A stretch of 63,799 nt of DNA, filler included, from Nemertoderma westbladi (GCA_032718475.1; 3 parts of 3 records of this genome joined end to end with filler, not necessarily neighbours in it), one strand, 5' to 3'; shown: positions 21,736 to 63,799, numbered from the whole stretch's first letter. Program-made: numbers and translations. Notes: a model not told the origin generated them from the sequence alone.

Positions 21736-22285
21736 TGTTACGCGAGTGCACCGCTGCACACATACCAGCATACAGACATAAGATTCGATATTGAGGTAGA
21801 GCAGAATACAATTTTAGCTTAGGCCTATTCTGCTATTTCTGTATTTGCTTTACCTGTTTACCTCAATATACGATCTTGCATTCTTGTACTCCCTCAATTT
21901 CTTGTCTATTTGCAGTTTAGATGGTTGATCTAATAAACTTAATATAATAAATACTGAAATATTACTGTAATATAATAAACTTAGGCCGTAATGCAATAAT
22001 GTCTTTCTGTCGGTCTGTCTGTCTGCCTATATCGAGTTTACCGGTATGCACTTTCTATTGGTCAATATTATGAATTCGTGTTACCTTACCACTACCACAC
22101 AGCCATAGATTGATTGATTGATTTTTTTAACACTATAAGTAACGTACAAAGTTTACAGCACCACTAATAAAAGACAGACAATGTAAAAAAGACACATACA
22201 ATACAATTTAGATAAATATACTGTACGACAGTAAGACAATTACGATATATCAGGTGGTGGCTCAATAGTTATGGTGTGTGGCATA

Positions 22286-28379: not shown

Positions 28380-29261
28380 GTAAAACGCTGGGGACTGATT
28401 TTCACATGTATGTCCAGTAGGGCAGTTCATATTGAACGTGTGATGGATCTTTCCACCAACGCGTTTATACTAGCATTGCGGCGATTTATCGCTAGACGCG
28501 GACTAGTGAAATGCTTGTACTCAGACCAAGGGACAAACTTTGTTGGTGCTCGAAATGAGATTGCTAGAGCCTTTAAGAAATTAGATCATGATCAAATCTC
28601 GAACGAACTACAACCTCACAAGATTGTTTGGAAGTTTAATCCTCCAGATAGTCCTTGGAGAGGCGGAGTCTGGGAGAGATTGATTAGATCTATAAAAACA
28701 GCCATGGCAAAGGTCATTCCAGTAAACCACATATTGACAGACGACCAACTGACAACACTGTTTGTTGAAATAGAGGCAATACTAAATACTAGACCAATAG
28801 TATTAGTACCCGATGACAAACAATCTCAGTTCGCTTTGACACCGGCACACCTGCTTATGCAGGCACCGACCACATTAATACCTATTTCTATTCCAATAGA
28901 AAGCGATAGCTACGGTAGAAAAGCGTGGAAAATCACGCAACTACTAGCTAACAAATTCTGGGAAATATGGCAAAACCATTATTTGCCCTCTATTTCTGCC
29001 AGAACAACATGGTACAATAACACCCGCGCATTAAAGCCGGGAGATCACGTGCTGTTAGCGGAAGTGAATCTAAAAAGACGCTTCTGGATAACAGGTGTAA
29101 TTTTAGCCACACATCCATCTATGGATGGAGTGACAAGAACTGTGACGGTACGGACAATTGACGGTCGTACAGTAGACAGACCGACTCAACGTCTCGTACT
29201 TCTTGAAGAGACTCGTAACGAGTCTGGAGACTACAAATCTCCAACTAATATTAGTAAATAA
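28380..29261 (+). mobile_element. Bel/Pao LTR retrotransposon, integrase 3' fragment (rve core and C-terminal domain)
   Basis: 'TCMSSRAVHIE', 'RRFIARRG', 'YSDQGTNFVG', 'WKFNPPDSPWRGGVWERLIRSIK', 'EAILNTRP', 'LTPAHLL', 'DGVTRTVTVR..RP...L'. Confidence 0.92.
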
Positions 29262-34398: not shown

Positions 34399-34734
34399 TG
34401 AACCAAGGTGGAACATGTGTCAGATACCGTCAGATCAGATCAGATCAGATCAGATAAGGACAGACGTTTTAGCCATCCTATAATTGTTTTAACATTGTTT
34501 AAATGGGCTGCGGTAAACCGCGCGGTTTAGCGCACAACTACCTGTTGGGTCGTTTACAGTCAGCGGTGTACCGCTGGCCCTGCGGTACACCGCGCGGTGT
34601 ACCGTTCCGTTGGATGTGATGTGAACGGGCCTTAAGCTAGAAAGTCCATCTGTTCAGTATTGTAGTAGGCCTAAGGTTATTGGGGTTTTCAGTTTCTCCC
34701 TACCGCTACGATATTAAGTTGTCATACAAGAAAT

Positions 34735-37314
34735 ATGGCATCATTATTTATTCGTATGTCGCACACTAAACTACGTCGGTTGCTATTACTTATCGGAGTG
34801 TTGTGCGTATGTATGGTTTACTACATTGCTTACATATATGACAAACAAAAATGGAGCAGCAAGTCGGTGGAACATGTGGCGTCCCAAACTCTACCTTGTT
34901 ACCTCGGACGTCAACAGGATAGCGGGATTCCTAGAAATGTACATCCTCAAAGCAATAAGGTATTGGTATTTGTCGAGTCGGATTATTCGCAATCGGGCCA
35001 GGAGATAATTACTGTATTAGAATCCCACAGAATAAGTTATCGCACAATCGTTCGAACAGCCAAAGATCTGCCGGTTTTAACAACCAAGTCCCAAGGCGTT
35101 TATATTTTGCTGGTATTCGAGGACGTCTTTCTGTACGCGAGTCTAGATCAATGGAGGAAAGATACTCTTATGAAATATTGCAAGGATTTCGGAGTTGGGA
35201 TGATTTTTTTTTCGAACCCACAAGGCGATCTTGGTGGAAGAGAACAATTACAATTATTTGAGCATTCCTTGTACATTTCAATGGCTCACGAATCAGTAGA
35301 ATTTACAATTAACCCGGAATGCACAAACCTTGGTGTTACCAAATCCGGCCAGGTTCTACACCTTCCCGATCACAAGTACATCTACTTTATAAGCAATCAC
35401 TCATCTTTCTACCCGTTAAGTTTTATAAAACCAATAGATTACAATGGAACTCGACGAATGTCCACTATAATAGATCGCGGTCTTCTCGACGGTATTGGCA
35501 AGGCGTTTATCGGTGGCGATTTGAGTTTCTGGGTGAATAAACTTCTGTTTTTGGACGTGATGTCCCATCTAACCGGGGACATTATATCGACACCTAACTT
35601 CCGATATATTATTGTCGATATCGATGACATATTCGTTGGAGCCGTCGGAATCAGAATGAGAAGCGACGACGTCGCCCATCTCATCGACACTCAAACTCGC
35701 ATTAGAGAGTTCATCCCCGGCTTCACATTCAATTTGGGATTCTCGGGAAAGTACTTCCTTAAAGGAACTCCTGAGGAGGACGAAGGGGATATGGCGTTGA
35801 TCCAATCCGCGGATCGATTCGTCTGGTTCTGCCACATGTGGGGCCACGAACAGCCCCACCTAATCAACTCGTCCGCCCAACTCGCCACCATTATGCGCAA
35901 GAACAAGGACTTCGCGTTCTCTAAGGGGATCCCTGTCTCCCCTGACTACAGCGTGGCCCCGCACCACAGCGGTGTCTACCCGGTGCACCAGCCCCTCTAC
36001 GCGGCCTGGCGTTCCGTCTGGGGCGTCCGGGTCACCTCCACCGAGGAGTACCCCCATCTCCGCCCGGAGCACCGCCGGTCCGGGTTCATACACGATGGGA
36101 TCAAGGTACTCCCGCGACAGACCTGCGGGCTATTTACTAAAACCAACCACTACGACTCCTTCCCCGGGGGCTGGGGTCTCATGGAGACCTCTATACGTGG
36201 GGGGCGACTCTTCCAGACTGTCGTGGACAACCCAGTGAATATATTTATGACGCACTTCACCAACTACGGTAACGACCGCTTGGCTCCCTACACGTTCACC
36301 CAACTCGTAGAGGTTCTAAGTAACTGGACGAACCTCCAGTTACGATGGACTCATCCCGCTTCCGTCGCCGACATTTTCTTTAAATTATTTCCGTCGCAAA
36401 GAGATCCGTTGTGGACCAACCCGTGCGACGATCATCGACACTTGGAGATTTGGAACCCGGAAAAATCCTGCCGACATTTACCTCAGTTGTTAATCTTAGG
36501 TCCCCAAAAAACTGGTACAACCGCCCTTTATAACTTCCTTAAATCCCATAAATCAACTCGAGTTAACGTTATTCTGGAGTCGACCTTCGAAGAACCTCAA
36601 TTCTTTAGCAACAACGAGATCTACCGACGCGGTATCGATTGGTACGGGTCGTTGTTTCCCAAGAAGGGAAACGTTTCCCTGGTCTTCGAGAAGAGCGCGA
36701 CTTATTTCGACTCATCGGCGGCCCCGGAAAGAGTGAAAGCGTTGCTACCCAAGGCCAAGTTGGTCGTTATGCTTATAGACCCAGGGAACAGAGCGTATTC
36801 CTGGTACCAGCACCAGAGGGCTCACAACGACCCCACCGCTCTCGCCTTTACCTTCGAGGAAGTCGTCCGTTCCAACTCGACTTACAGGAAACTCCGCCAG
36901 CTCCGGAATCGTTGCTTAGATTCCGGGTATTACGCGGACCATCTGCGGTCCTGGTTGAAGTTCTTCCCGCCTTCCCAGTTGTTCGTTATCGACGGCGAGT
37001 ATTTCCGGAACAACCCGGTTCCCGTGATGAATAAACTCGAGAAATTCTCGCGGTTGAAGCCGCACATCGATTACAACGATAAACTCATCTACAGCCCCAA
37101 CAAGGGCTTCTATTGCATCCGGGGCTCCTCCGCCCAGCCGGTCTGTCTGGGCAGTGGAAAGGGGCGACAATACCAGCCAATGAGCGAATCTTTACGGGAA
37201 TATTTTAAAAAGTTATATTATCAGTCGAATTCCGAACTTTATTCCTTATTGGTTAAATTTAATATTAAACCGATGTCATGGTTACAAAGTAGTCTAAGTT
37301 TAAGGTCACCTTAG
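34735..37314 (+). CDS. NDST: Bifunctional heparan sulfate N-deacetylase/N-sulfotransferase (NDST/sulfateless family), single coding exon
   Basis: 859 aa with an N-terminal type II TM segment. Deacetylase motifs 'VDIDDIFVG', 'WFCHMWGHEQPH' and 'APHHSGVYPVH'. Sulfotransferase motifs 5'PSB 'GPQKTGTTALY', 'FEKSATYF', 3'PB 'RAYSWYQH' and 'CLGSGKGR'. Confidence 0.97.
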   Translation: MASLFIRMSHTKLRRLLLLIGVLCVCMVYYIAYIYDKQKWSSKSVEHVASQTLPCYLGRQQDSGIPRNVHPQSNKVLVFVESDYSQSGQEIITVLESHRISYRTIVRTAKDLPVLTTKSQGVYILLVFEDVFLYASLDQWRKDTLMKYCKDFGVGMIFFSNPQGDLGGREQLQLFEHSLYISMAHESVEFTINPECTNLGVTKSGQVLHLPDHKYIYFISNHSSFYPLSFIKPIDYNGTRRMSTIIDRGLLDGIGKAFIGGDLSFWVNKLLFLDVMSHLTGDIISTPNFRYIIVDIDDIFVGAVGIRMRSDDVAHLIDTQTRIREFIPGFTFNLGFSGKYFLKGTPEEDEGDMALIQSADRFVWFCHMWGHEQPHLINSSAQLATIMRKNKDFAFSKGIPVSPDYSVAPHHSGVYPVHQPLYAAWRSVWGVRVTSTEEYPHLRPEHRRSGFIHDGIKVLPRQTCGLFTKTNHYDSFPGGWGLMETSIRGGRLFQTVVDNPVNIFMTHFTNYGNDRLAPYTFTQLVEVLSNWTNLQLRWTHPASVADIFFKLFPSQRDPLWTNPCDDHRHLEIWNPEKSCRHLPQLLILGPQKTGTTALYNFLKSHKSTRVNVILESTFEEPQFFSNNEIYRRGIDWYGSLFPKKGNVSLVFEKSATYFDSSAAPERVKALLPKAKLVVMLIDPGNRAYSWYQHQRAHNDPTALAFTFEEVVRSNSTYRKLRQLRNRCLDSGYYADHLRSWLKFFPPSQLFVIDGEYFRNNPVPVMNKLEKFSRLKPHIDYNDKLIYSPNKGFYCIRGSSAQPVCLGSGKGRQYQPMSESLREYFKKLYYQSNSELYSLLVKFNIKPMSWLQSSLSLRSP

Positions 37315-39202
37315 AATAAATGAATTGAATTAAGTCATTTGCCTGACAATGTCACCATTTTATTATAATTAGATTTTGATGTGAAGGAAATTACTGGGTT
37401 CAATTCAAAGTCAACATTTTTAATCTCTAAACAGCAAATATTGTATATAAATAAATTGTAAAATATATTTAGGGTGGAATTAAACCAAATTAGTGACCTG
37501 GGCGAGGATATATTTCGCTTCTTCTTATTGTTCATATATTTTTTTGGAATGATTCACGACGAATAAGGAAACAGTGAAAGTCATAGCACACAGTACTGTT
37601 ACATACGTTATACATGGTGCAATAATTATTGTACTAAAAGAAACCGAAAAACGGGTTGTCTATATAGTCAACAATAATTATTTATGCAGTTCTAATTAAA
37701 TAATAATCAATTAATAATACTTGTCACAATTTTATATGGTTTATTTATTTGTAGGTGTTTGTTTTTATCATTATGTTAGTTATTTTTAGATTATTTATTT
37801 TTTATATATAATTATAAATAGGCTATAGGCCTAATATAATAAATGTAGATCCACTCCTTTCGCACTCAATTCATTCCACGTTTGGGACCTTCGCGCCACA
37901 TGAAAGGGTCTGTCTGTATAGTTAGAGATTTCATTGCTAAACTAGCCAGGGTGCTTGTTTACATTAAAGAGTATCGTAATTATTATAATACAGACGGCCA
38001 TGAGGGTTGAGCATAGTTGTGAGTCCCTGCCACAGACACACCAGGAGTGCAAGCATAGTTATTATTATGTGCTATTATCACCTCGACCAGGGTTGGAAGT
38101 GCAACTCAAAAACTAAATCTAATATCACATCACCCATCTATCGTGATCCATTTACTGATGACTCTATATTGGAGGTGACTGGTTCGAATCGGAGCGAAGC
38201 CCGAGGCAGTGCGATTGTTTGTGGTTCAGCTGCCCAGCGAGAAGATAAAGAAATGGTTGGATAGTGACAGAGTTGACACATATTCAATTTTGGGAGTAAG
38301 AGAGGCGACGATACAACGCACATTACAGGCGTTCCATTGATATTTTATATAGAATTACTACATTATACATCCACCGGAATTACGTATATTAATTCTAGGA
38401 TCCAAACCAAAATATCGGCCACAATAATTTGTGACATTATAACATATAATATATAGCACATTAATTCATATTCAACCAGTTCAATTTATGGTTTTATTCG
38501 TACACCTCTTTAAAACAATAATAAATCGAAGAAAACCAATATCATTAACCATACATTATGTATAAATAAAATAATAACTGTATAAATTGACTCAGAATTA
38601 TTGTATTGGCACTTCGGGAATATCTCAGATTGAGCTAAGGGGTGGATTAAGGATTGCGTTTGTACATGTCGTAATTTAATTTGAGAATGTCACGGCCAAT
38701 AACAATTATACTTCGGAGAATCCCGAAGTATAATTAATTGTTCAGTTGCATCAGAACATAAATGTATTGATTATATCGAATTAATAAGTCAGTAAACCAA
38801 TTATGATACTAAAACGAATGTTTCTTTAAGTGAAAAATGAAAGTAGCTCAAGCAAAATGTCCATTACAATGCGCAATACCGATCTTAAGCGGAATCCATT
38901 TGAAAATTGGACTAAATGAGGAAATTCAAAAACAACATCAAATAATTAATATATTTCTGTAACAGAACCTATAATTAATTTATAAGGCAAGTAAAACTTA
39001 TTCCTTAACATTGACCAATAACGGCAACATATAGTTAGTATAATATATAACATAAACAATATCATTAAGTATTTGTGTCCTTATTGCAACAAAGAGTTAT
39101 TACATTACACTGCCATTACCACAGGCACAATTTAGGTAAATATAATATAAAATTAAAATAACGCATTTTTATTTATATCGCCAGTCCAGTTTGTATTTTT
39201 TT

Positions 39203-39964
39203 TTACGAATTGAACACAACTCTATATTCGTCGTCCAATGCTAATCGTTTATAATTTGGATTCAAAACAACAAACCCAACCAAACCGGCCAGTAGAACAA
39301 TAGCGACGCCCAAACAGTTAGCGAGAACTCCCTGGGGAGGCAGAAACTTATAGAGCAACCGTTGGTCCTCGGGTCCTGTAAGCGACTCGAAGGAAAGTTT
39401 CTCTGTGATCCCGGTGAGGGAAGCGACGACGGCCATGCCGAATATAGCGAGTCCGAAACAGACGTGGATCGGCATGTAGAACCGCCGGTACTCCATAGCG
39501 AGACCGGGGAAGAGAAAGGTGACGAAACCGAAGACGAGTTGAAGGCTAAACAGTAGAACGGTGGACAAACCGATCCAGCTGTGTAGACTGTACATGTTTG
39601 GGATATGGTTGGCATTATGGTTGTCGAACACAGCTACCAAGCCGACTGTTGCGAAACTTAGGATGGCCACGTGGATAAAGGCGTGGAGGAGTTTGACGTT
39701 CTTCTTGGGTTTGGTGCGGAAGACGCGATAGACTATGATGGCATCGGCGTACAGTACGATCATACCGACTACCATGCACAATGGATGTAGGTTGAACTGG
39801 AACCTGGAGCCGTCCCACGCGAAACCCCCAAGGCATTGGCCAGTCCACACCGCGACTAGAGTGAGGATAAGAAGTCCTATTACCTGCGCGGAACCAACGG
39901 CCAGCGGGAAGTATTTGAATTTATTTTCGATTTGGAATCTATCTATCATAGGCGATTGTTCCAT
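39203..39964 (-). CDS. Cytochrome b561 family ascorbate-dependent transmembrane reductase (CYB561A3/CYBRD1-like), single coding exon
   Basis: Six hydrophobic segments. Heme-ligand motifs 'FNLHPLCM', 'KLLHA', 'NMYSLHSWIG' and 'YMPIHVCFG', plus 'GITEK'. Confidence 0.95.
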   Translation of the reverse strand: MEQSPMIDRFQIENKFKYFPLAVGSAQVIGLLILTLVAVWTGQCLGGFAWDGSRFQFNLHPLCMVVGMIVLYADAIIVYRVFRTKPKKNVKLLHAFIHVAILSFATVGLVAVFDNHNANHIPNMYSLHSWIGLSTVLLFSLQLVFGFVTFLFPGLAMEYRRFYMPIHVCFGLAIFGMAVVASLTGITEKLSFESLTGPEDQRLLYKFLPPQGVLANCLGVAIVLLAGLVGFVVLNPNYKRLALDDEYRVVFNS

Positions 39965-40860
39965 CTCTGTAACTCATTTATTTATTACATAAATAGGACA
40001 GAAGGGTGAGTTATAGAATATTATTATATTAAATATGAGATAAATATAAAATTATATTTTGCATTATATTATTGTCATAAATGTAATTAATATCATAAAT
40101 AATATGATAAACTGCAGTAGATAAATGAGGAACAAAAATTAACATTGTTGACCCAAAGTTAAGGCACTGATATCAGCACGAAAATTCGTAGAAAAACACA
40201 TTAAATACAGAATTGCTTACAATATATTAATTAAGAACATTATCGCTTAGGTATACATTATAGAATTATAATGCAATTAATAATCTTAGATTATAACTAA
40301 TATGCCTCACTAACTATAAACTAAATAATATACATATAATAACAAAATAGTAACATAAACACAACATCCTGTGAGTTTATAGAATAAAAACCTTTACTAT
40401 ACAATAAGCCTGTACTAATAATCATCAAATACTACACTATAAATATATAACAGTTTAAATAAGTGTATTAGTGTATAACATATACTATACAATGTCAATG
40501 CGTGTTTGTTGTTATCCTAATATTGAATTCTTAAATAAACTGTTATAGGGGAGTGAAATTGCCTCGCTGAAAGAGGGAATAATGAAATTGTTTAGATATT
40601 AGAATTATAAATATTTTACAAATATAAATATATTTAAGTCTAGAGTCGCGAATTCTATCTCGACGAATTACGTTAATTATCTAATAAAAACTGACAGAAG
40701 ATGGGGTTCACTGTTACAAATCTGCAAGAAAAAACACAGAAACGAGACATGGTACAGTGGTAGGCCCTAGCCTTCTAGTATCCACAACTGTTGGAACTAG
40801 TACACAGAACAACAGTTGTAGTAATGAGTCGTTACGTTATATACAGATACGCTACATACT

Positions 40861-41292
40861 CTATTTGCCTTCCAGCTCCGAGTCGCAAGGGGTTCTTAAT
40901 AATACGACTGGTTTATTGTCGTCTCGACGTTGTAACAAGATTTCTCCCTCGAAGTGAACCAGTCCTTGTCTTCTAGCGCGGATAAGCATACCGACCAGTT
41001 TATTGCTAATCCTCGTATAGATGAGGAACAGCTCTCCGAACAGTATAGTCTTGAATCCATCTGTGTTTACTTGGCCGTGATCGGCGATTATTCGACAGAG
41101 TTCTAGAACCTCGCGACTCACTCTCGAATGAGCCGCTAATCCTCGCGCTTCGGTTTTCGATCCTTCCACCGGTCGTCCGTATGTGGCATCGTGGGCAGTT
41201 AGACTGTCTAGATGTGATTGTCCGGCGTAAACCGTACCGAAAGGATCTTTTGGTTTGTCCGACATCACATCCAACATCAGCGCATGCCGCAT
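40861..41292 (-). CDS. ABRA: ABRA/STARS-like Costars-domain actin-binding protein (short form; start uncertain)
   Basis: 'YGRPVEGSKTEARG', 'FGELFLIYTRISNKLVGMLIRARRQGLVHFEGEILLQRRDD' match the C-terminal domain of ABRA. Confidence 0.88.
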   Translation of the reverse strand: MRHALMLDVMSDKPKDPFGTVYAGQSHLDSLTAHDATYGRPVEGSKTEARGLAAHSRVSREVLELCRIIADHGQVNTDGFKTILFGELFLIYTRISNKLVGMLIRARRQGLVHFEGEILLQRRDDNKPVVLLRTPCDSELEGK

Positions 41293-42297
41293 GGGGTTGC
41301 AGCTCCAGGCAACCAGGGTTCATGAGGCGAGGCAGCGAGGATATCACAGTACTGCAGGATCGGTACCTTACAGTACTGCAGTAGTACCTATCCTATCCTG
41401 CTATCATCATGTTACTGTGATAAGTCCCTAAAAGGTGCCACCCTGCTCCATAGCGCGGGAAATTCAACTGATTGAAAGACATGTAAAATTGCTGAAATTA
41501 GCGAAGGCCGATCTTTTCCATATTTATGGCACTATTTTCATTAATTTTCAGTAGGAACTTATTTTATGCTACTTTTCTTAGGTGGATATTTTCACATTAA
41601 CGATAATTTCACATTATGACCGCCAGGTAGAAATTGGGCTACTATTTTCTATTTATATCATTTGCAACTGACGTCCCTGGGACCTTTACAATAAGATTCA
41701 CAATTGACGATTGATAAAATATGATGTTGGTATTTTTAACTTAATATTGACAAACCGAATAAAAATTGTGTTTTATAGAATTGGTTGACAATTATTCAAA
41801 TTTTTCATTATACATATTACCATGGCAACGGGATTGAAAAAATATTTAAATATAGAATATTTTAATAAACTTTTATTCCCATTACTCGCCTACCAAATCT
41901 CAAGAACAGAATCCCTCGTCGTCTTGAATTACAGACGGGCAAAGTTTGAACTTTGTACCCGGTTACCTTGACAACAACAATATAAAAATTCCAGAAACAT
42001 ATTTTATTACAATTCTATGAACACTAGTCATCATATCCACGGGTTTGTCTTTTTGCCGTATGTGTACGTATTTGAATGAGTTCCCGTAGCCTACCGTAGG
42101 CTACCGTATGTGGGACGTATTTGCCCGTATTCAGGAAGCAGAATCAGTGCACTGCTTACCGCTAACGCAACGGTACGGTACCTGGCAACCTGGCCTGTTT
42201 TAAGTGTTTTTATACTACGTGTTCTATGCTCCCGGTACCAGGGGTTTGGAAATTCTCTGCGAGTTTTTTTTTTCAAGGATATTTTTTATTATTTATC

Positions 42298-50350: not shown

Positions 50351-51534
50351 GTATGTTAGAAAAATATTTTATATGAATATGACACCATTATGCAAAATTA
50401 TTTAATTATATACAATCTTGCACTAACATTTCACTGCAAAACTATTTATTTATATTACATTATGTAACATAAACAGGGAGCGATCAGCCATGTTAATCCT
50501 CAGCTCTTCTGCATTATCAAGACTACAGTAGTATGATTTCACTAGTCATTTATTAAATGACAATGACCAACAGTCCCACTCTCCAAACTTTCTTTTAACA
50601 GGCAACAGCTAGACAAAATATGTATGATGACTGCCGATATGATATCATTTCATGAGATCAAGATCATTTCCTTGGATTTATATGATCTATGATAGCAGTA
50701 GTCAGCAAGTCATTGCACTCGTTTCACATTTCAGACATTGTGCAGAATCGAACAAGGTTTAGTTTATAAATTACTTTCCTCGTAATAAAAAAGGAAGTAT
50801 ATGTGGGGCGAGCCACGAAGTAAGTGAGCCTTAGCATAGGGGTATAATTGAATTAATCAACCTGTAATTCTGTTATTCTGTTGTTATGTCATGTCCTCTT
50901 TTAAACGTTGATAACTCGGTCAAACCTTGATGAAATCTATAAAAAAAATTGGTACACATGATGTTTGGCAAAAGTTAGGACATTTTCTGTTAATTATTAT
51001 TAATTATAAAATTAAAATTAAATATTAATTAATTATTAATTTATTTGTGGCCTTTGAGAAGCTAATATAAAAGCAATAAATTCGTTAATTAAATATTAAT
51101 TGCGGTAAAAACAGCTATTTCAAGCCTGTCATTTAAAGAAAATTAATTATTATACGATTTCAATAATTATACAACTGCTTATACTAATGCTTATTTAATA
51201 TTGCTCAGTTAATCAATAAATGAACAGATATTTAAATAAATGCTGCTCCTGCTTCGTAAGGGTATGTGCGACCAGTCAGTGTCAGCACCCGGACTGGGAA
51301 AGGTTGCACCAAGTTGTCCCGCCATGGCAATGTCAGGTTGCAGGAACCCCCACAACATCAATCCTCCAGAGTCGCACCCATGTACTGTACTACACACCAG
51401 GCCCAGGATCCTCCTCAAATCTCACCCATAAACAGCCGCTCCGACTATGATCCCGAGATGACTTTGGAGGCTGCAACGTCTAGTGAGAGCAGCGATGGGG
51501 ATACCAGTGGCGATTCGACCGTTTCAACTTTGCT

Positions 51535-52338
51535 TGTGACGGTATCAGAGGATCTCGACCGGTATGTGGTTTATGTACGCGTCCCTGCCGTGTGAATGAA
51601 AAAGGGTTCGTTGTTGTTCCGATAATGTTGATGAATATAAAATATAGTATATAATGAGCAAACAGATAGCACAGTTGAAGTACAGAATGATCGGTAATAT
51701 TGAATGTGATGGTGACGGCGGTTACGGTAAAAGAGTGTTACTGTACTGCCCTAACTGACTGAGCAACTGAGTAAACTGAATATGTGATGAAACACCGACC
51801 GGTAATATACTACATTACATTGGCCTGTTACTTAGCTTATGCCTTCCTGTCTCCCCATTGGTTGATAACCCAATTCTCGGCTCCCACCTCTGTGGGAGTG
51901 TTTCCCCCTCTGCTACTGTTACTTTCCCTCTCCCTGAGGCTTAACCTCTGACCTCCATTGTATACGGCCCTTTGGGGGTTCGTTGCCCCCGTTTATTGGG
52001 GGTGGTACGAGGTTGATTGGTAATCAACCTCGTGCTTCCCAATATTGCTTAAAGGCGCCGTCTCCCAACTTTATGGGGTGGTTAGCGGAATTGAATCCGC
52101 TAACACTCCCCCCCATGCTATCTTCCCGGTGAGAAGATAGCATCAACCTCTAGTGCGCTTCAATTCCGCTGGAACCCGGTTTACTACCGGGTGTGGGGTG
52201 GAGTTATTTTCTTGGAGTCGGCTTTCCAGGCCGCTCCCTATGGGTATGATATTTCTACCCTCTCTTGGTGCAACTTCACCTATGTTGCACCAAGACATCT
52301 GGCGTCTCGGTGTCGAGCCAATTGTGGTTTCTGTCACA
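51535..52338 (-). mobile_element. 3' LTR of Bel/Pao element 1
   Basis: TGTGAC...GTCACA termini. Homologous along its length to 60023-60780. CCAAT-like and TATA-like motifs on the minus strand. Confidence 0.8.
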
Positions 52339-52809
52339 CAATTTTTGTTTCCTCAACACTCTCTCCACTCTAACTCCACTCTAACTGACTCTAACTTCTC
52401 CCCCACTCTAGCTCTCTGACCTTCTTGTCCCTCACTCTACCTCTCACCCCCCCCCCCCCCCCACACACACTTGAATTGCACTCGCACTCTCTCCACGCGT
52501 TCTATACTCGATCTTCACCCCCGATTCTCTTGCTCCTGACAGGCCTCACCCTCCCTTCCTGTGCTGTCGCACTCAAGAAGTGTGAAGTCGTCTAGTGTCC
52601 TGTTCTGTCATAGTCAATTGGTCCCCAGTCCCAGTAGCTAATTGGAAAAGGTTATATGACTATAGTACTTACTTTTGATTATATTTACTTATTTGACTAT
52701 ACTAATGATTATTACGTATGTACATACTAATTGCACTTTTCAATTAAATTTTGCACTTAGGAGTTCGTACTTCTCACGGGGTGCCTTCCAGGCATCCCAC
52801 ATCCAAGTT

Positions 52810-55402
52810 CTAGTTCGTTCTACCTGACTTTGGGAACCATCTCAACTCCTTCCCTCTGTCGTCCTCCTCCCTCGGTCGTTTCCTGGCCGCTGCCGCTCCC
52901 TTGGTCTTATCCCCTTTTAAGTTTCTGACCCTCACCGTTACCTCTCTACTTATTCCCGTCGTCGACTCCTTGGGCTCTGGTGTTATCAGCTCCCGGTATC
53001 GCTTCGCGGGTGGCCCCTCCGAATGGCCCTGTTGTCTCCCCCTAGTGGCATCCCATATGATCACTTTCATCGCCCGCGGCACATGCTCCGCCAAGAAATC
53101 TCTGAACTCTCCTCGGTTCTGTGGTGTCCACCTGTCCAAATGCCTCTGCGTATTTATCACCCTGGCATACGACGCCGCCGTTGACACCTCCTGGTAGGTA
53201 AACGGAAGTATCCGTTTAATAATCCCCAGGTGGGCCTTCTGGTTGATATTAAAGAAGCCCCACCGGAACTCCTGGGCCTTCATTCGGGTCATGGTGCCGA
53301 CATCGGCCCACTCCTCGAAGATCCTAAACTTTTCTTCGTCATCCATCCAGTCGCACTGGCGTCCGTAGTGCCCCCGGAAGTTGCACTTAGAGCACCAGTT
53401 GTGCAACCGTGGACACGCCCCCATCCTGTGGCTCGACTCGCGGCAGTAGAGACAACTAGTCCCTTTCTGGAATCGGTACAAACAGCTCCTTTCCTGGTGA
53501 GTTTGCCTCCCGCAGTAATCGCAGCCGAGCACCAATGTCTCCCGCCCCACGTCGTCTTTCATCCCAAGTGATCTCCTCGGTCTGTGGAGTTGCTGGTACT
53601 AGCTCTCGCTAGTACCAGCAAGTTGCTGGTAAGCAAACTTTTGGACGTTAGCGTCCCTGTCCATGTCTATCTCCTCGCCCCTCCCGGGCATCGTCCCTCC
53701 GAATACTACTCGTGGTGCCGTTCCCGGTTGCTCGCCCAACCTGATGGTGCTCCCCGCGAAATCCATCACCGGCTCCTTATGCACCCAGGCCCGCTTGCCT
53801 GGTCTATCCCAGAAGGCTCCCGCCCCACTGGCCGTCACCACCCTCCCGCCAACCCAGTCCGTGTCCGAGTGGCCGATCCTCCTGATGGGCGGCATCTCTC
53901 TGAACTCGTCGTCATCCTCGTCCTCCTCTGGGAGTGGCTCCAATCCCGGTATCCTGGTGGATCCACTGTGTCCCTTCCCACATTGGCTCTCGCCCGTGAT
54001 CTTCCATCCTTCCAGCTCCCCCAATCTCCTCTGCGCGAAATCGCCCTCGGCGCCCGCTGGTATGGGCGTCGCCTGCAGTCCCGATGTCGACTGTTTCGGT
54101 GACCCCACCGTCCACCCCAACTCTCGCCCCAGAGACTCGCCCGAACTCCCCAATGACGTCCAACGAAGTTCGTCCAAGGCCGCCCGTTCCTCGAACCCGC
54201 AGCTCTCTGCTCTGGCTGCCTCCTCCCTTTCTTCTGCCTCTCTCCTTTCTCGTCTAGCGATTTCTTCCAATCGCTTCGCTTCTCGTCTATCCGCCTCTAG
54301 CTGCTCCCACCTCTGATATGGCATATCCACATCCCTGTCTACTAGATGTCGGCAGTTGTAATACACCGACTCACCCTTCAGGCCCGGGTGGTCTACCAGA
54401 CCCTCGAAAGCCACTCTGAAGGTTCTTCTGTAGTTCAGGGGTGATTCCGATAGCAGGAATGCTGATGGTTCTCTCTCGATAACCATGGTGATGAATATGT
54501 TTAGCAAACCTATCATTATCCAGTCCTCCTGCAGGATATATCGCTTCTGATATACCTTTATCACTCCTCTCCGGAATTGATACACCTCTTGCTTCCCTGG
54601 CCTTGCTCCCCACTGCAGCGAGTTTGCCAACTCCGCTCCGTACTCCTCCCTGAATTTACCCCAGTCCATTGGTTTGTGGCATACGAGCCCCATTAGCTGG
54701 CCCATCGCCACCGCTCCACAATGGCCTATGTTCTCCACTAGTCCCAACCCGTCTGGCGCCGTCATAGCCATGTAGACCGTTTGCATATCCAGGAGGTTGA
54801 GGTCTCCGGACCGATGATCCTCTCCGCATCGTCGCGGATCGCCGATCCCACCTTTATCGTTGACTTCTCCATTACTAGACTCTGCACTGCTTTCGGTAGC
54901 CGGTTCAACTTCGGTCGTTCTTCTTTCCATATGTCCCTAGATCGAACAGGAATATATCCCCATTTGGCGTGGCCAAATGCAGGAGTATGGTTCTGGCCGA
55001 CCCCGCCGACCCTCTCCTCGAACCTTCCTCGTCTTCCACGGTCCCCTCATCGTCCAGGACCATGTATCCTCCACTGCTGACGGACTCTACGAACCTCTTC
55101 CAATCCTTTCTCGGTGGCTCCTTTTCGTACTTCGGTATCCCGAACTTCGCCACGTCTCCTTTCACCATGTAGTGGAAATGCTCGAAGATCGCGTTGTCTA
55201 GCGACGGTGTCCCGTAGGTCCCAACCAGTTGCTGTTCGTGCACCTCCCTGAAATGGTCCTGTAGCGCTCGCGCTTTGTGACCACTCTCTAACTGCTCATA
55301 GTATCCCCTCGTCTTCTCTTCCGGATGCCTCTCGGTGAAATCCACCAGTATCTCCTTTCCTCCCACCTCCGCCTTTCTCTTTCGAACAAGTTTCTCCGCC
55401 AT
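52810..55402 (-). pseudogene. Extra ORF of Bel/Pao element 1: DEDDy-type 3'-5' exonuclease-like domain, charged linker and three CCHC zinc knuckles; two frameshifts and one in-frame stop
   Basis: 'YMVLDDEG..LLHLATPNGDIFLFDL'; shifted frame 'LPKAVQSLVMEKSTIKVGSAIRDDAERI'; 'NLLDMQTVY'; 'QKRYILQED'; three CX2CX4HX4C motifs within 52810-53562. Confidence 0.72.
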
Positions 55403-55899
55403 TTCGAACTCTCTCAATCACTCACCTGTAAGGTGGTGCCTTGCCAAGGCGCAGTACAGATGAGTGATAAAGTTAGGATGGTCTGTGCAGTTCGATAATG
55501 GCCTATCTCTTGCTGTGCGTTAGGTTATCGCCTGATTTTCCTACCTTAATTTCTAAAAGTGCCTAATTTTACCAAATTTCGTAATTCTGCCCGTTACTTA
55601 AATTATGTTCCAGAATATTTCTCCTACTGTTACCATAATTTGTCTAATTTCCTAATTTTATTTATTTTTAATATTTAATTTAATCCTACTACTGTGCTAT
55701 CAGTATCTGCCAATGGATTATTATATTTTATAATCCACATTCTGGCCTACTCTGTGGGCTTGTGCAGTACAACAGTATGCGTCGCGTGGACGATTTATCC
55801 AGCTGTACCCACGTGCCCCCCTCTCGCTACTCATTACTAACTCTACTAATTTTCCAGCTAATTTCTGCTGACTCTTACTATATACTATATTATACATAT

Positions 55900-56570
55900 C
55901 CTCCTATCACTAACTCTTACTGCTAACGGTACTATACGTACCCTCCTACTAACTTTTCTACTAATTCCTACTATGTACTATGTACCGGTACTATGTACTC
56001 TCTTACTAACTAGCTCTACAACTAACTCTTACTAATCGATACTACGTACCCTCTTACTAACTAACTAACTCCAACTAATGGTACTACGTACCCTCTTACT
56101 GACTTCTAACTCCACTAACTCTTACTAACCGGTACTACGTACCCTCTTACTAACTAACTAACTCCAACTAACGGTACTACGTACCCTCTTACTAACTTCT
56201 AACTCCACTAACTCTTACTAATCGGTACTACGTACCCTCTTACTAACTAACTCCACTAATTCTTACTAATCGGTACTACGTACCCTCTTACTAACTAACT
56301 CCACTAACTCTTACTAATCGGTACTATGTACCCTCTTACTAACTAACTAACTCCAACTAACGGTACTACGTACCCTCTTACTAACTTCTAACTCCACTAA
56401 CTCTTACTAACCGGTACTACGTACCCTCTTACTAACTAACTAACTCCAACTAATGGTACTACGTACCCTCTTACTAACTTCTAACTCCACTAACTCTTAC
56501 TAATCGGTACTACATACCCTCTTACTTACTTACTAACTCTTACTAACTTCTATCTGCCTACTTACTTACT
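55900..56570. repeat. Tandem array of about 42-46 bp (GGTACTACGTACCCTCTTACTAAC...) between pol and the extra ORF
   Basis: More than 10 copies of the core. The same core occurs at 62180-62580. Confidence 0.9.
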
Positions 56571-56799
56571 GCGTACTTACTATGTACTACTTTCCTTTCT
56601 CTTTCTCTCTTTCTCTATTATTTTTTATTTTATTAATTTTTTTATATTTATGTGTGGGAAGGGCGTCTCGCCCTCAATCCCACCCCCCTCAGTCCAACAC
56701 TTGGACGACTAACTCTACGGTGCGCCCTCTAGAAGGCAACATTTCCCTACAGCCCTCCGATAGGTCTTCCTATCTTTCGCTCGTATCTTTCCACCTATT

Positions 56800-59475
56800 C
56801 GCACTTCTACCGATCAGACACTTCTGCCCTCATCGGAGTAAGTGCCCACAACTCTCGCCAATCTCCATTGGTTGTTGATGATGGTATCATCTGTGATGAT
56901 CACCAGATCACCCCCAACTCCCTATTTGTATTTCTCCACTTGCTCCTCCTATGAAGCGTGGGTAGATATTCCTCGACCCACCTCCTCCAGTACTCCGCGC
57001 TTATCGCCTTAGCGACTTTCCAACTCTGTTAGGAGTGTATATCGTCTGGGTCTACACCCCGCATGTCGATGGTCGCTGGTCTCTCCATTAGAAAGTGACT
57101 GGGCGTCAACACATCTAATGATTCTGGGTCATCATTTTCTGGGTATAGCGGTCTGCTATTAATGATACCCTCGCACTTTGCTAGTACCATCCTTAGTACG
57201 TCCTCTGTTACCATGTGGGTGTTCATCAACTTTGTCATCAGACGTTTGGAACTACCCACGAGTCTCTCGACGCATCCTAGAGTATGCGGAGCATACGGCC
57301 ATCTGCCATCTCGTTCTCCACCCCCACAAAGTTGGTTCCGTTATCCGAGTATATTACTGCAATCAGCCCACCTTTGCGGTCTCTGAACCTCTCTAGGGCC
57401 AGACCATTGATCGACCATCGGCATTGATGAATGCCGATGCGGTTGCGTCTTGGGCGAGTTCTATCCCTACCGCCCGCGTGTTATTACATACGAAGATAAT
57501 GCCGTAGCGCTTCTCCATGTGCCGCATCACCTTGATCTTTATTGGCCCGAACATATCCACACCGCAGTGCGTGAATGGCGGGTCGTGCTGTCTCACCCTA
57601 CTGGCCAGTAGTAGCGCCATCTCCTGTATGGCCCACTCCTTGGTCCTTGGTCCTCCTGTATGGTCCTCCGGCAGGTCTGGCACTGCCCCACTACCGCCTT
57701 TACCTTCTTCCTTAACTGTTTGACCCAAAAGGTCCTCCGTATCTCCGTGAGGGTTCCCTCTAGTGTTACTTCCTCTGAGCCTGGGTCCACCTTCTTCATC
57801 GGTGGCCAGGCTGTCCTGTCGTTCAGGAATTGTGGTCCATGCTGCCACAATACTTCCTTCTTCAAGAAAGTGTGGCGTGCCACGCCCCTCAATAACAAGT
57901 CCGCTGGGTTCTCGTCCGTTGGGCAGTAGTGCCACCTTTCCAACTCCCTCGTCGCTCTTATTTCGTCCACCCTATTTGCGACGAATATAGGGTTTCTCGT
58001 CCTTTCATTGTGTAGCCAACCAAGCACTACCATGGAGTCCGTCCAGTAGTGTGTTTCCACTATGTTGGGAATAGCATGCATCAGATAGGCTGTGGCTCTT
58101 ACTCCTAATCTCGCAGCTGTCAACTCGAGTTTCGGGACTGATGCTGAATCTGGCGGCGTTGACTTTGCTTTGCTGAATGCGAGTCTGGGCTTATGAGCCC
58201 CTTCTCGTTGTACTAGGTAGAGTGCCGCTCTGTATGCCTCCAATGATGCATCGGAGAACATGTGTAGGTCCAGATTCGTCATGTCCCCATCCGGGAAATA
58301 CACGCGTGGCATGCTGTATGTCCCCATCAGTTCTAAACTCTCTGTCCACTTGCACCACTGCTTGCTGATCTCTTCCGGTACCTCCGTGTCCCACTCATCC
58401 TTCAGCTTGTATACTTTATTAAGTATCTGTTTCCCCGTGACTAATAATGGGGATGCTAGGCCTAGGGGATCGTATATCCTCGCTATGTACGATACATAAC
58501 CCCTCTTTGTGTGGATGTTCGCGCCCTCCTGGCTCAATTGGTACTTCAATTCGTCTGTTTCTCAGTGCCACACGATCCCTAGTGCCTTCTGTTGGGACTC
58601 TATCCTCTTGTTCGCCATGTCCTGTCCCTTGGCTGTCGTGGGATTATCCATGGTCGATTCTGGCCTCCTGTCCTCTATGGCTTTGATAAATTCTTCCGAA
58701 CTGGATTGGAACTTGGTCAGGTTAAACCCGGATCCTTTTAGGATATCGCTAACCTCGCGCCCCTTATCCAGTAGTTCTTTAACCGTGTTTCCAAGCTCCA
58801 TTCCGTCGTCTACATAGAAGCCGCGTCGAATCATATCGACGGCTTTAGCCCTGTATCTCTCCTCTTTACCCTCTACTGTGTTTCTTACAGCCACAGTCGT
58901 CGTGAATGAGGACGACTTGGCACCCATATTCTGCACCACCATCTTGTACATCGGTATTGTCGACGGTTCCTCATCGCCGTTGTACCATAGGAAGCACTGA
59001 CTGTCGCTATCCTCTTCCGTTACATGGACTTGGTTGAACATGCCTTCGATGTCGCAAGTGAAGGCGTGCTTCCCGTTCCTGAATCTGAGTAGGACCTCGA
59101 TCCCTGAGTTATAGATGTTGGGACCCTCTAACAGATAATCGTTTAGGCATTTGCCATTGGTCTTAGCCGATGCGTCAACTAACATCCGCAGTTTACCTTT
59201 CTTCGGATCTAGAGTCACGTGAAGTGGCAGGTAATAGGTCCTGTCCGTGTTCGGTTCGTCGACCGGTAACTCCACAGCCCATCCTTTCTCAACATACTTC
59301 CTGATCGTCTTATGAATGTACTCTTTCTTTTCAGGGCTCCAACTTACGAAGCCTCGTGAGTACCATTCCTTTGTTGTCGGGTAGCGGTAGTTTTGGTAGT
59401 TTCCATACCATCCCTATGGTATACCGCCCCTCATCGCATGTCATCGATTCCTTTACACTTTGTAAAGCCTGCTTA
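56800..59475 (-). mobile_element. Bel/Pao pol, decayed: RT, Pao-type RNase H and integrase
   Basis: RT 'YYLPLH..KLRMLVDAS..CLNDYLLEGP..DIEGMFNQV..FYVDD'; 'YDPLGLASP', 'LHMFSDAS', 'PKLELTAA', 'YWTDS', 'ENPADL'; integrase 'GVDMFGP', 'INSRPL', 'LTPSHFL'. Confidence 0.93.
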
Positions 59476-59476
59476 T

Positions 59477-60022
59477 TAGGGTAGATCGAAAAAAAATTTT
59501 GGAAATGAAACTTTTCCCTATGTTAGAAATGTGTGAAATTGCCTAAAACCACAAAAAAACATCACTATCCCAATTTTTGACAATGCATGACCCCCGCACA
59601 ATTAGTTCAAACAAACAACATTTTTTACAAAACTATGTAAAATTAATTCATTTAGAAAGAATTTTTTTTTTTTTAATATCACTTTTCCCAGTACCAGAAC
59701 TGTCTGAAATGGCCCAAAACCACAAAAAAACATCACTATCGCAATTTTTGACAATGCATGACCCCCGCACAATTAGTTCAAACAATCAACATTTTTTACA
59801 AAACTATGTAAAATTAATTCATTTAGAAAGAATTTTTTTTTTAATATGACTTTTCCCAGTGCCAGAAGTGTCTGAAATGGCCTAAAACCACAAAAAACAC
59901 AACTTTTAAAAATGTTCACACTGCATGACCCCCGCACAATTAGTGCAATGTTTTATAAAACTATGTAAAATGAAATAATTTAGACATAATTTTTTTTTTT
60001 ATATGAATTTTCCCATTGCTAG
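59477..60022 (+). repeat. Tandem repeat of about 170 bp, 3 copies; probably the end of a DNA element that truncates pol and is itself cut by the next LTR
   Basis: CATGACCCCCGCACAATTAGT at about 59587, 59757 and 59924. Confidence 0.8.
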
Positions 60023-60780
60023 TGTGACGGGATCGGAGGATCCCAGTTTATCCGGTGTTGTTTGTGTACGCGTCAGCCGCACCGTGTGATGGAAAATGTA
60101 ATAGTTCGTTATTGTTCCGATGTTATTGATAATATAGATATAATGATGCAAGTATAGAAGTATAATAGCAGATAGCAGTTGACCGGTAATATGGGTATGT
60201 GGTTGGTGACGGCGGTGACGGTCTTAAACTGTCACCGTACTGCCGTGACTGTACTGAGATAACTGACTAACTAAACTAAGCATCAACCGGTAATATACTC
60301 TAGGTTGGCCGTGTTACTCAGCTGATGCCCTGCTGTCCCCCCATTGGCTAGTAACCTACTTCACACCCTGAACTTTGTGGGAGAGTTTCCCCCCCCCCCC
60401 CCACTGCTGTTACTCTCTCTCCTTGACCTCTAACCTCTATTGTGTGAGGCCCTTTGGGGTTTGTCGTCCCCACTTATTGGGGTGATACAAGGTTGATTTG
60501 TAATCAACCTTGTACTCCCAATATTGCCTAATACCAACTTTGTGTGGGCTTGGTTAGCGGAATTGAATACGCTAACACTCCCCCCCATGCTATCTTCCCG
60601 GTGAGAAGATAGCATCCACCTCTAGTGCGCTACAATTCCGCTGGATCCCGATCTACTATCGGGTGTGGGGTGGAACTATTTTCTTCGGAGCCGGCTTTCC
60701 AGGCCGCTCCCTATGGGTATGATATCGCTACCCCGTTTTCCTGGCGTCCCGTGTCGGGCCGATCGTGACTTCCTCTCACA
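60023..60780 (-). mobile_element. 3' LTR of related element 2
   Basis: TGTGAC...TCACA termini. Homologous to 51535-52338 and followed by the same internal sequence, so the two LTRs are not a 5'/3' pair. Confidence 0.8.
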
Positions 60781-63700
60781 CGACTTTTGTTTCCCCAACA
60801 CTTTCACCGCTAACTCCGCTCCACTTTCACCCTAACTCTTCTCTACTTCTCCTCACTCTCGCTCTAACCCTCGGACCTCCTTGTCCCTCACTCTATCTCT
60901 CACTCCTCCCCCCCCCACACTTGAATTGCACTCGCACTCTCTCCTCGCGTTCTCTACTCAACCTCTCGCTATCTTTCTTGCGTTCTCCTCTCATACTCTT
61001 CTCACATTCCTCTCATACTCCTCTCATACTCCTCACTCTCCACGCCTGTGGTCCCACCAAGTGCCCCTCCTACTCGTATCCCGGTAGTGCCCATCTGCAC
61101 GATTCTTATCCCGCAGGATACGAGCTTTCACAATAAATCCTGAGCTCCGCCCTGTTGTTCAATGACCACGCACTTATCGGGTCCCACGCATGTGTGCACA
61201 TGTTAGTGGGAGCCGTCTAAGTCCCGTCCTGTCGCCCTAGTCAATTAGTCCCCAGTCCTAGTAGCTAATTGGAAAAAGGTTGTGCTTGACTAGGTACATA
61301 TTATATGGTCGTCTACATCCTACTACCCACTACTCTCTCTCCGCCTTTCTCGCCTGGCGACTTCTTCCAGTCGCTTCCCCTCCAGTCTATCCGCTTCCAA
61401 CTTCTCCCAGCTCTCTTGTGTATCCACCTCCCTGTCTACTAGATGCCGGCTGTTGTATTACACCGACTCGCCCTCCAGCCCCGGGTGGTCTACCAGACCT
61501 CCAAGCCCCTAGAAGGCCCTTCTGTAGTTCTGGAGGTGATCCTGATATTCTTAACTTTCATTCTTATTCTGTTTCACCCATGTTTGCCCCTGTGCTATCA
61601 TACTATCTACTTACCTACTAACTTCTTGTCTAACTAACTCTGCTAACTCTAATTCTACTACTACCTCTAACTCCGCTACTAACTCTCTACTAAGTCTACT
61701 CCACTAGCTCTACTAACTCTGCTAACTCCATTTACTCTCTACTAACTCTACTCCACTAGCTCTACTAACTCTGCTAACTCCACTAGCTCTACTAACTCCC
61801 TGGCTCTACTGACTCTCTAACTCTACTGACTCTCTAACTCTACTGACTCTCTAACTCTACTGGCTCTCTAACTCTACTGGCTCTCTACCTCCACTAACTC
61901 TACTGACTCTCTACCTCTACTTCTGCCAACTCTACTGACTCTCTACCTCTGCCAACTCTACTGACTCTCTAACTTCTACTAACTCTCTACCTCTACTAAC
62001 TCTACTGACTCTCTACCTCTACTTCTGCCAACTCTACTGACTCTCTACCTCTGCCAACTCTACTGACTCTCTAACTTCTACTAACTCTCTACCTCTACTA
62101 ACTCTACTGACTCTCTACCTCTACTTCTGCCAACTCTACTGACTCTCTACCTCTGCTAACTCTACTAACTTTCTAACTAACGGTACTACGTACCCTCTTA
62201 CTACTCTTACTAACTCCTCTAACTATCGGTACTACGTACCTCTTACTACCCCTACTAACTCCTCTAGCTAACGGTACTACGTACCCTCTTACTACTCTCA
62301 CTAACTCCTCTACCTGCACGCGACGCTCTGAGCGCCGGCAGAGTGGGTATGTTAATTGTGTAGACTACTGCTAACTCTACCTCCATCTACGTGGCGCTTG
62401 CGGTGCCCACAACCACAACCGGTACTACGTACCCTCTTACTAACTCTACCTCTATCTACGTGGCGCTAACGGTGCCCACAACCACAACCGGTACTACGTA
62501 CCCTCTTACTAACTCTACCTCCATCTACGTGGCGCTAACAGTGCCCACAACCACAACCGGTACTACGTACCCTCTTACTAACTCTACCTCTACTCTGCTA
62601 ATACTAACCCTAATTAACATACCCTGCTCTTACATCAAACACGTCATCACGCCTGTGCCATACTTTGTTCAACGCACCCCCTGTACCCTTCTCATCTCTC
62701 CCACCTTTCTCCTCTAGCTCACCCTACTTGTTTCCTCTAGCTTGTTCTTGGTTGTTTATACTGCGGATATTTTGTAATGGGGGAATGTCACCCTGCCCCC
62801 CCCCCCCCACCAGTGTTATGTTTGGTACTGGGGTTGATGTTAATATATTGGGGCCCATCCATCTATCTGCAATATCCCCCTCAACCGCGTCTTTGTTATG
62901 CCCCTGTGATATTATAGTCATGCTGCCGTACCGATATAGGCCTACCCACTTCTTGCCTACCTACCGGCATGTACTCCGCGACTTCCGGGTTTAATCCCGT
63001 CGTCCGCGCTACCCTATCGCCTATTCTATCTCTCCCAGCATGGCCTATAATAGTATGTGCAGTAAGGCCTACAGTATGTCCTTCCTCTTGTCTGCATGTG
63101 CCCTTCCGAACCGAAGTTTAATTCTCTCGAATCTCGAATCTCCCCGCGACTACCGTACTCTCGATCGGCAGCTACATCCGTCGGGAAGTTTCTCTTCGAT
63201 CCCCTATCCTGCTCTCGTCTTCGTATCGGTACATCCTGTACCACTCTCCTGATGTGCGGTGCGTTTCTCCGGGGCGACGGCAATCTCCCGAAGTTCGACC
63301 CCACTCGCTACTAATCTCTCGTGGTGGGGCACCCGTAGCCCCCCCCCCCCCCCTCCCACTCGCCACATCTTACTTCACTATATCTTACTCCACTTCTACA
63401 CCCCTCTCTAGTCGACGCACTGTCTCTACTGCGGTTGGGTCTATTCACCCCCGCCTCTCTCTCTACTACTGCGTGGCCTACCAGGCCCATCTCGGGTTGA
63501 CTCAACCCCGCTGCTCCCTGCCTACTAACTACGTTGCCTTGCAGGCTACCGTTGGCCGGACCATCTGTGTCTACATTAGTATTAATAGCGCCGTTATCAA
63601 TGTTATTATTTAGGTTATTCAAATTAGAATTATTATTATTTTCTAAATTTAAATTATTATTCGAATTATTTGGATTATTCTGAATATTTGAATTAATATT

Positions 63701-63799
63701 ATTATTTGAATTTAAATTTAAATTACCGGGTAAAATATTTCCTGTAATAAAGGGATTAGGGTTATCTACTACGGTACTATTAATATTAACATTTTCTAG
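60781..63799 (-). mobile_element. Internally deleted relative of Bel/Pao element 1 (3' UTR, extra-ORF remnant, repeat array, integrase-end remnant, possible gag start)
   Basis: 60781-61280 resembles 52339-52650; 61335-61530 resembles 54240-54437; 61620-62600 is a CTAACT / GGTACTACGTACC array. Confidence 0.75.

Follow-up and report, generated by a model that had tools for sequence, protein, structure and literature searches.

In the bdelloid rotifer long terminal repeat (LTR) retrotransposons Juno and Vesta, a DEDDy-type exonuclease gene, ORF3, is located downstream of pol, and such genes are shared with the Athena/Terminon elements (Rodriguez, Kenefick, and Arkhipova 2017; PMC5408684). DnaQ-like exonucleases (DEDDy/DEDDh) are also carried by the DNA transposons Dada and KolobokD, in which, as far as the accessible sections go, the nuclease is thought to trim transposition ends and no knuckle array is described (PMC3706591, PMC9587614). 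Among cellular enzymes, Trypanosoma brucei RNase D (TbRND) consists of a DEDD domain followed by four CCHC fingers, which the enzyme needs to bind RNA and to trim the U-tails of guide RNAs efficiently; its authors regard the combination as very unusual (PMC7797062). In the window analyzed here, a stretch of 63,799 nucleotides from Nemertoderma westbladi (GCA_032718475.1; three parts joined with filler), the position between pol and the 3' LTR of a Bel/Pao element is occupied by a gene with three zinc knuckles and an exonuclease-like region. We lean toward the view that this extra gene, the third gene of an abundant Bel/Pao family, encodes a protein whose knuckles would grip single-stranded RNA and whose likely divergent WRN/EXD-type DEDDy fold would trim or shield RNA 3' ends.

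The locus resembles Juno and Vesta in carrying a DEDDy-type gene without a transmembrane part in the env position, between pol and the 3' LTR, and the same two roles are proposed for the rotifer elements (PMC5408684); that the extra gene is an exonuclease homologue at all is quite likely. It differs in its Bel/Pao host, the word BEL being absent from the main text of PMC5408684, and in its size of about 860 codons, its probable coiled coil, and its three CCHC knuckles. Compared by description only, rotifer ORF3 shows strong HHpred homology and invariant residues (DEED), whereas the match reported here is weak and its ExoIII motif atypical. The original prediction had presented exonuclease cargo as undescribed for Bel/Pao elements. 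This stands for Bel/Pao, although DEDDy ORF3 cargo in LTR retrotransposons as such was published in 2017; as far as the literature was checked, it is the Bel/Pao host group and the layout that are new. No Bel/Pao exonuclease report was found by a literature search outside whose scope lay several older papers, repeat databases, and supplements, so absence from print is unproven. An exonuclease may once have been noted in a nematode Cer element, which the search did not confirm. None is contained in the accessible parts of PMC3118150, PMC9094657, PMC535339, and PMC11662393, and "exonuclease" has 0 occurrences in the main text of de la Chaux and Wagner (2011).

A decayed third gene between pol and the 3' LTR of a Bel/Pao element

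The extra gene runs on the minus strand from an ATG at 55402 to a stop at 52810 (864 codons) and lies between pol and the polypurine tract (PPT) and LTR (Table 1). As predicted, three open reading frames join into one gene of about 860 amino acids. The two anticipated frameshifts (54925 and 54805) were found near 54925 and 54800, together with a third break, an in-frame stop. In a codon-frequency test using a model built from 726 codons of the adjacent pol, frames 2, 1, 0, 0, and 0 were selected in five of five segments, and every winning frame contained 0 stops; along this path, a single gene is read that is broken by two frameshifts and one stop. Synonymous codon choice over 809 codons scored +0.133 bits per codon under the adjacent-pol model, and models from host genes (-0.059), from the other Bel integrase in the window (-0.295), and from a long interspersed nuclear element (LINE; -0.353 bits per codon) fitted worse. 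By codon usage, the extra gene shares its lineage with the adjacent pol, and both strand asymmetry and codon choice continue from pol into it. The locus is a decayed copy of a genuine family gene that occupies the env position in a Bel/Pao element. Programmed frameshifting was judged an unlikely source of the breaks, given that other copies differ at the second one, as was assembly error as their sole cause, given that frames of 879 and 964 codons are preserved in host genes of the window and that pol has decayed too.

The Bel/Pao identity of pol, also part of the original prediction, is borne out by Pfam matches in the order reverse transcriptase (RVT_1, E 7e-4), RNase H (PF05380, E 9.7e-41), integrase (Integrase_H2C2, E 3e-6), and DUF5641 (E 1e-9), PF05380 being the RNase H of Bel/Pao elements (PMC3985635). 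Pol carries several stops and frameshifts and is truncated 5' at about 59480, where it starts abruptly, cut at a 171-bp satellite (59525-59948); gag and the 5' LTR are absent from this main copy. At the other end, an untranslated region (UTR) of about 700 nt separates the extra-gene stop from a 9-nt PPT and a 575-bp TG...CA repeat, and both PPT and LTR are present in a second, deleted copy. Belpaoviridae are defined as having LTRs of 0.2 to 1.2 kb preceded by a PPT of about 10 nt (PMC8742986). The LTR is 82.5% identical to its partner over 554 aligned columns (73.6% over 1023 columns including gaps). The second copy, in which the parts follow the same order, includes a 213-bp gene fragment with 81% identity to the main copy, and its repeats at 62152-62527 cross-match the tandem array in the main-copy spacer and are thus related to it. 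This anatomy and the shared order of parts fit the Belpaoviridae profile of the International Committee on Taxonomy of Viruses (PMC8742986). Upstream of the second copy, an Asn-rich open frame (63314-63799, minus strand) without a Pfam match runs off the window end and may begin the family gag.

Pol domain order, PPT, LTR size, and third-gene position are shared with the env-bearing Belpaoviridae Cer13, Tas, and Atlas (PMC8742986, PMC9094657). In contrast to these, the third gene here lacks any segment resembling a signal peptide or transmembrane anchor and matches no glycoprotein. Maximum 19-residue hydropathy was 0.94, 1.51, and 0.57 in the three long segments, and no membrane-anchor-like segment was found; the gene is therefore not an env. 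Its expression may nevertheless follow the env style, since an acceptor signal from which a spliced RNA is predicted precedes the ATG: the pyrimidine-richest 50-nt window of the element strand (59480-52106) sits just 5' of the ATG, at 0.64 versus a mean of 0.38. The predicted acceptor AG is directly followed by a donor-like GTGAGT (55427-55418, minus strand), and the site could be usable either way.

The gene and LTR might instead form a separate or nonautonomous element lying beside pol, or the gene might be a displaced gag. Linkage of gene and pol is seen in the main copy only, the second copy is without pol, and no read data span the spacer. A G-run and small hairpin follow the pol stop, and a triple Cys-His box is described as the hallmark of Bel/Pao Gag (PMC554778). 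In that description, however, the third Gag finger ends in His, whereas all three knuckles here are of the form C-x2-C-x4-H-x4-C. The hairpin is not significant (z -1.46), no Gag family was matched in the Pfam scan, no LTR-like sequence occurs between pol and the gene, and what follows the gene is the UTR, PPT, and LTR, not a protease. Together with the codon choice and strand asymmetry that continue from pol, these points make this alternative very improbable, and a displaced gag in particular unlikely. A third gene belonging to the same element as pol is the reading retained below.

Table 1. Coordinates of the extra gene, its motifs, and the surrounding element in the window
Feature	Coordinates	Strand	Basis
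Segment 1: ATG, about 110 aa of unassigned nature, then ExoI-like region	54908..55402	-	Frame analysis, codon test
Segment 2, bounded by the frameshifts and containing ExoII-like KVG-x5-D (Asp 54830-54828)	54803..54902	-	Best local WRN-like profile match; codon-test frame
Segment 3: remaining exonuclease-like region, helical region, Glu/Arg-rich probable coiled coil (~54318-54205), low-complexity linker	53602..54801	-	Frame analysis, codon test
In-frame stop (third break)	53599..53601	-	Frame reading
Three C-x2-C-x4-H-x4-C zinc knuckles	53353..53523	-	Motif reading: 53523-53482, 53454-53413, 53394-53353
C-terminal region and basic tail, up to stop	52810..53352	-	No family or structure match
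Splice acceptor (predicted): CTAAC at 55476 resembling a branch point, then a pyrimidine-rich tract and an AG that ends at 55426, 24 nt 5' of ATG	55426..55495	-	Sequence signal
ExoI candidate D-x-E-G (DDEG) after hydrophobic strand	55043..55054	-	Motif reading, profile
Two core strands matching WRN-type 'lvQla...ylfql' region	54941..54985	-	Profile alignment
ExoIII candidate QKRYILQED, Q-x-x-Y-x3-E-D (Glu not Asp at Y+4)	54523..54549	-	Motif reading; not aligned as ExoIII by profile
Bel/Pao pol remnant (RT, RNase H, integrase, DUF5641 end)	56715..59413	-	Pfam matches and frames
93-bp tandem array, 6.0 copies, 89% matches, in 1.3-kb spacer from pol to extra gene	55987..56546	.	
Polypurine tract, 9 nt, abutting LTR	52106..52114	-	Sequence; identical arrangement in second copy
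3' LTR, TG...CA, about 575 bp	51531..52105	-	Partner 60577-60017
Second, deleted family copy: repeat tract, 213-bp gene fragment (61547-61335), 3' UTR, PPT, LTR 60577-60017	60017..62590	-	Sequence matches

A divergent exonuclease-like region

The motifs on which the exonuclease assignment had been based were all located at their predicted minus-strand places. An ExoI D-x-E occurs in two candidates, starting at 55054 and 55033, the second of which (DEEG, 55033-55022) has a spacing to the next strand nearer that of natural WRN-like proteins. Further motifs are LHLAT (54982-54968), LPKAV (54899-54885), KVGSAIRDD (54854-54828), and LLDM (54795-54784), and the ExoII Asp in K-x-G-x5-D was aligned with the profile Asp. 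The region thus resembles WRN/EXD2/Mut-7-type proteins (PF01612) in the order of its D-x-E, hydrophobic strands, KVG-x5-D, and D-hydrophobic motifs. It differs from them in longer spacings, the lack of a YA-x-x-D ExoIII, and in scores far below those of members.

For scoring, profiles were built from natural bacterial PF01612 members: 52 WRN-like, 47 short NrnC/RNase D-like, 17 RNase D, and 116 mixed. The first 48 bacterial stand-alone PF01612 loci were of NrnC/short RNase D type, not WRN-like, and were retained as a contrast profile; the WRN-like seed had WRN, Mut-7, and EXD2 as its best structure matches. Read through with X at the breaks, the region reached hidden Markov model (HMM) scores of 6.5 bits with the WRN-like and 9.7 bits with the mixed profile, as high as which none of 1000 shuffles scored, and the codon-chosen frames gave the top score among 27 frame combinations. 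Whole-profile (glocal) alignment produced Z values of 3.3 to 4.6 (WRN-like) and 4.7 to 5.9 (mixed), matched by 0 of 61 real decoy frames. The signal persisted over 12 break placements (Z 3.1 to 5.6 and 5.1 to 8.8, respectively). The core of the alignment consists of the two strands, the helix with KVG-x5-D, and the Asp after it. Although the ordered motif pattern matched 0 of 100000 shuffles, it should be noted that it was written after the sequence had been seen and fits 21 of the 52 natural members.

Several observations weigh against this assignment. ExoI and ExoII are 68 or 75 residues apart versus 59 to 60 in natural WRN-like proteins (8 to 16 extra), ExoII and ExoIII 87 or 101 versus 69 to 72 (15 to 32 extra), and the profile alignment skipped the quoted ExoIII. 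The RNase D profile gave 0.4 bits, a score reached by 22 of 1000 shuffles, and the short NrnC-type profile reported no match; Z on these two RNase D-type profiles alone was 0.3 to 2.5, at or near chance. On the WRN profile, 17 true distant DEDDy members scored above the extra gene (Z 8.4 to 20.7), and once gap costs were made stiff, it was outscored by 1 of 150 shuffles and by four or more of the other frame combinations. Database searches were similarly unsupportive. Separate gene pieces had no exonuclease match in a Pfam scan, the exonuclease pieces found chance matches only in the PDB sequences, and HMMER with 54801-54262 returned 0 matches among 1.84 billion representatives. Homologue searches were blank for segment 1 in longer proteins (510 candidates), for segment 3 residues 43 to 235 (637 candidates), and for the knuckle segment in longer proteins (47 candidates) and metagenome contigs, as were a viral-contig search and a metagenome-contig search with pol. 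ESM Atlas top scores of 0.86 and 0.83, from unrelated families, fell below the 0.9 line and were set aside. AlphaFold single-sequence models, with predicted local distance difference test (pLDDT) values of 40.5 (C-terminal half of the exonuclease-like region) and 33.9, were too poor for a fold search.

These blank searches, the scores under those of true members, and the post hoc pattern, which fits only 21 of the 52 natural members, favor a reading in which the motif likeness is due to chance and the gene is an orphan whose accessory product binds RNA and has knuckles but lacks the exonuclease fold. This is unlikely, though a prospect to be taken seriously: none of the 1000 shuffles came up to the HMM score, the frame path that had been chosen independently scored best, and the result survived all 12 break placements. 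We therefore consider it quite likely, judging from sequence comparison, that the region adopts a very divergent WRN/EXD-type DEDDy (DnaQ-like) exonuclease fold. Of the WRN/EXD1/EXD2/Mut-7-type signature claimed originally, the motif order beats chance; the DnaQ fold, a special link to Mut-7 or EXD1, and activity are not established.

Given the fold, the odds of catalytic activity appear about even, because ExoIII is atypical, as the original prediction had recognized. No Y-x3-D is found in the decayed copy: the residue after Y-x3 is Glu, with Asp one later, in the tabulated candidate, and Arg in a second Q-x-x-Y candidate upstream of it, which also counts against the assignment. The ExoI D-x-E-G form is, we assume, reminiscent of EXD1/Egalitarian. 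The main rival within the fold is a DEDDy-derived domain that is catalytically dead or crippled and serves as an RNA-binding adaptor or decoy. Glu or Arg in the ExoIII place and the large insertions in the C-terminal half favor it, and EXD1 and Maelstrom, which it would resemble, are named as inactive derivatives in PMC5408684. Against this, the ExoI D-x-E and the ExoII Asp are present and an Asp stands at Y+5; the main copy has many private changes, so that its residues may differ from those of active copies; and rotifer ORF3s show a DEED variant (PMC5408684). We regard a dead or crippled domain as unlikely.

Zinc knuckles and the comparison with trypanosome RNase D

The zinc-knuckle part of the prediction was confirmed by three CCHC knuckles at 53523-53353. 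Their best PDB sequence match was 7C42, T. brucei RNase D (E 0.02, or E 0.009 with the whole segment; 13 matches at E up to 1), followed by retroviral nucleocapsids, LIN28, and Air2. TbRND (PDB 7C42; PMC7797062) resembles the predicted layout of the extra gene in having a DEDD exonuclease followed by a CCHC row, and its knuckle spacing is similar. It is, in contrast, a cellular mitochondrial enzyme of the RNase D group with four knuckles and a 28-residue linker, and the exonuclease pieces here do not match it, making this an analogy rather than a demonstrated kinship. A match at E 0.009 to 0.02 is possible for any triple CCHC array and may reflect finger spacing only, and about 330 residues lie between the knuckles and the exonuclease-like region, compared with 28 in TbRND; both points speak against the favored reading. 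By analogy, TbRND may still be taken as the closest worked-out model for the knuckle-plus-nuclease layout.

Copies of the family and hints of constraint

Contigs of four sequencing runs were aligned to 51400-55900, a stretch that covers gene and LTR and excludes pol. Three of six listed runs contain 0.23 to 0.27 of the words, and the four runs used represent at most three samples, one possibly the window's own source. The numbers of aligned contigs per run were 8738, 5477, 6054, and 106, most of them 90 to 99% alike in the first three runs, and coverage extended to 30 of 30 bins in each of three runs and to 29 of 30 in the remaining one, gene and LTR alike. Gene and LTR clearly constitute a many-copy repeat family, contig depth not being a copy number. 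The deepest contig coverage was seen in the noncoding stretch 5' of the LTR (52100-52574 versus 60572-61031), which is 85.6% alike between the two window copies, above the identity of the LTR itself, and may hold a cis element.

Relative to the main copy, contigs in three of the four runs carry an indel at the second break, and one contig in each of two runs carries one at the in-frame stop; these come from the best 12 of 141 indel rows, among which the first break does not appear. Such differences fit private decay of the main copy. Forty of 895 substitution rows were examined, with shares taken from run X1, and 21 fell inside the gene. Fifteen of these sites were nearly fixed against the main copy, 2 of them at third positions, and the other 6 were variable among other copies, 5 of them at third positions (P 0.018). 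Similarly, of the 33 differences between the two window copies, 10 lie at first, 7 at second, and 16 at third codon positions, with 70 positions of each kind compared (P 0.05 for the share at third positions). This pattern suggests a protein under constraint and a main copy decaying neutrally, on small numbers: the counts derive from 21 in-gene rows among 40 of 895, which weakens any use of them in favor of a functional gene. Since the family is abundant, its copies should permit a selection analysis.

Proposed role of the encoded protein

In intact copies, the predicted spliced RNA would be translated into a soluble protein. Its three zinc knuckles would hold single-stranded RNA, the DEDDy-like domain would trim or cap the 3' end of the bound RNA, and the Glu/Arg-rich helix may dimerize the protein. 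RNA is inferred as the substrate by analogy to TbRND, with knuckles feeding RNA to a DEDD site, and the layout offers a concrete guess, namely, single-stranded RNA 3' ends.

An active enzyme could alternatively serve replication, trimming 3' ends of element RNA or cDNA or proofreading reverse transcription in the particle, with knuckles that act in a nucleocapsid-like manner. WRN-type exonucleases work on DNA 3' ends, which would suit such a role, and retroviral nucleocapsids are among the knuckle matches. A role of this kind has also been proposed for the rotifer ORF3, Dada, and KolobokD nucleases. Gag and pol, however, suffice for most Bel/Pao elements (PMC8742986), and the separate, predicted spliced expression offers no obvious route into the particle. 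We hold this alternative to be distinctly unlikely. The knuckles and the precedent of TbRND lead us to favor action on RNA 3' ends rather than cDNA trimming.

That the job of the protein is to act on RNA 3' ends for the benefit of the element, by removing small guide RNAs or destabilizing tails, is a guess and doubtful as such. More specifically, it is conceivable, if improbable, that a Bel/Pao lineage encodes a knuckle-guided, TbRND-like 3'-5' exoribonuclease that degrades host piRNA/siRNA guides or removes uridine tails and so aids high copy number; an anti-silencing role is speculation. If true, an animal retrotransposon would carry an enzyme that suppresses RNA silencing, a rare case of such an element countering small-RNA silencing enzymatically. 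In the literature found, exonuclease cargo in the env position is known from rotifer gypsy-type elements only. A Bel/Pao case with a WRN-like, not Rrp6-like, domain would mean repeated independent capture across LTR superfamilies, which would argue for a real benefit.

Other features of the window

The host genes in the window are nearly intron-free. VPS8 (14350-21813, minus strand) has frames of 559 and 964 codons with a 15-bp satellite array (about 17670-20050) between them. Long single-frame host genes at 34675-41319 encode a heparan sulfate N-deacetylase/sulfotransferase (879 codons), a cytochrome b561, and a Costars-domain protein. The integrase end of a second, unrelated Bel/Pao family (28302-29261, plus strand; DUF5641 E 9e-22) has a different codon usage. 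A LINE-type reverse transcriptase fragment (12146-13198, minus strand; RVT_1 E 3e-10) lies in a region repeating every ~5.7 to 5.9 kb. The stretches at about 3100-5400 and 9000-11300 form an apparently identical duplication with a spacing of 5890 bp (100% in sampled repeats, identical open reading frames), which is either a very recent tandem duplication or an assembly artefact.

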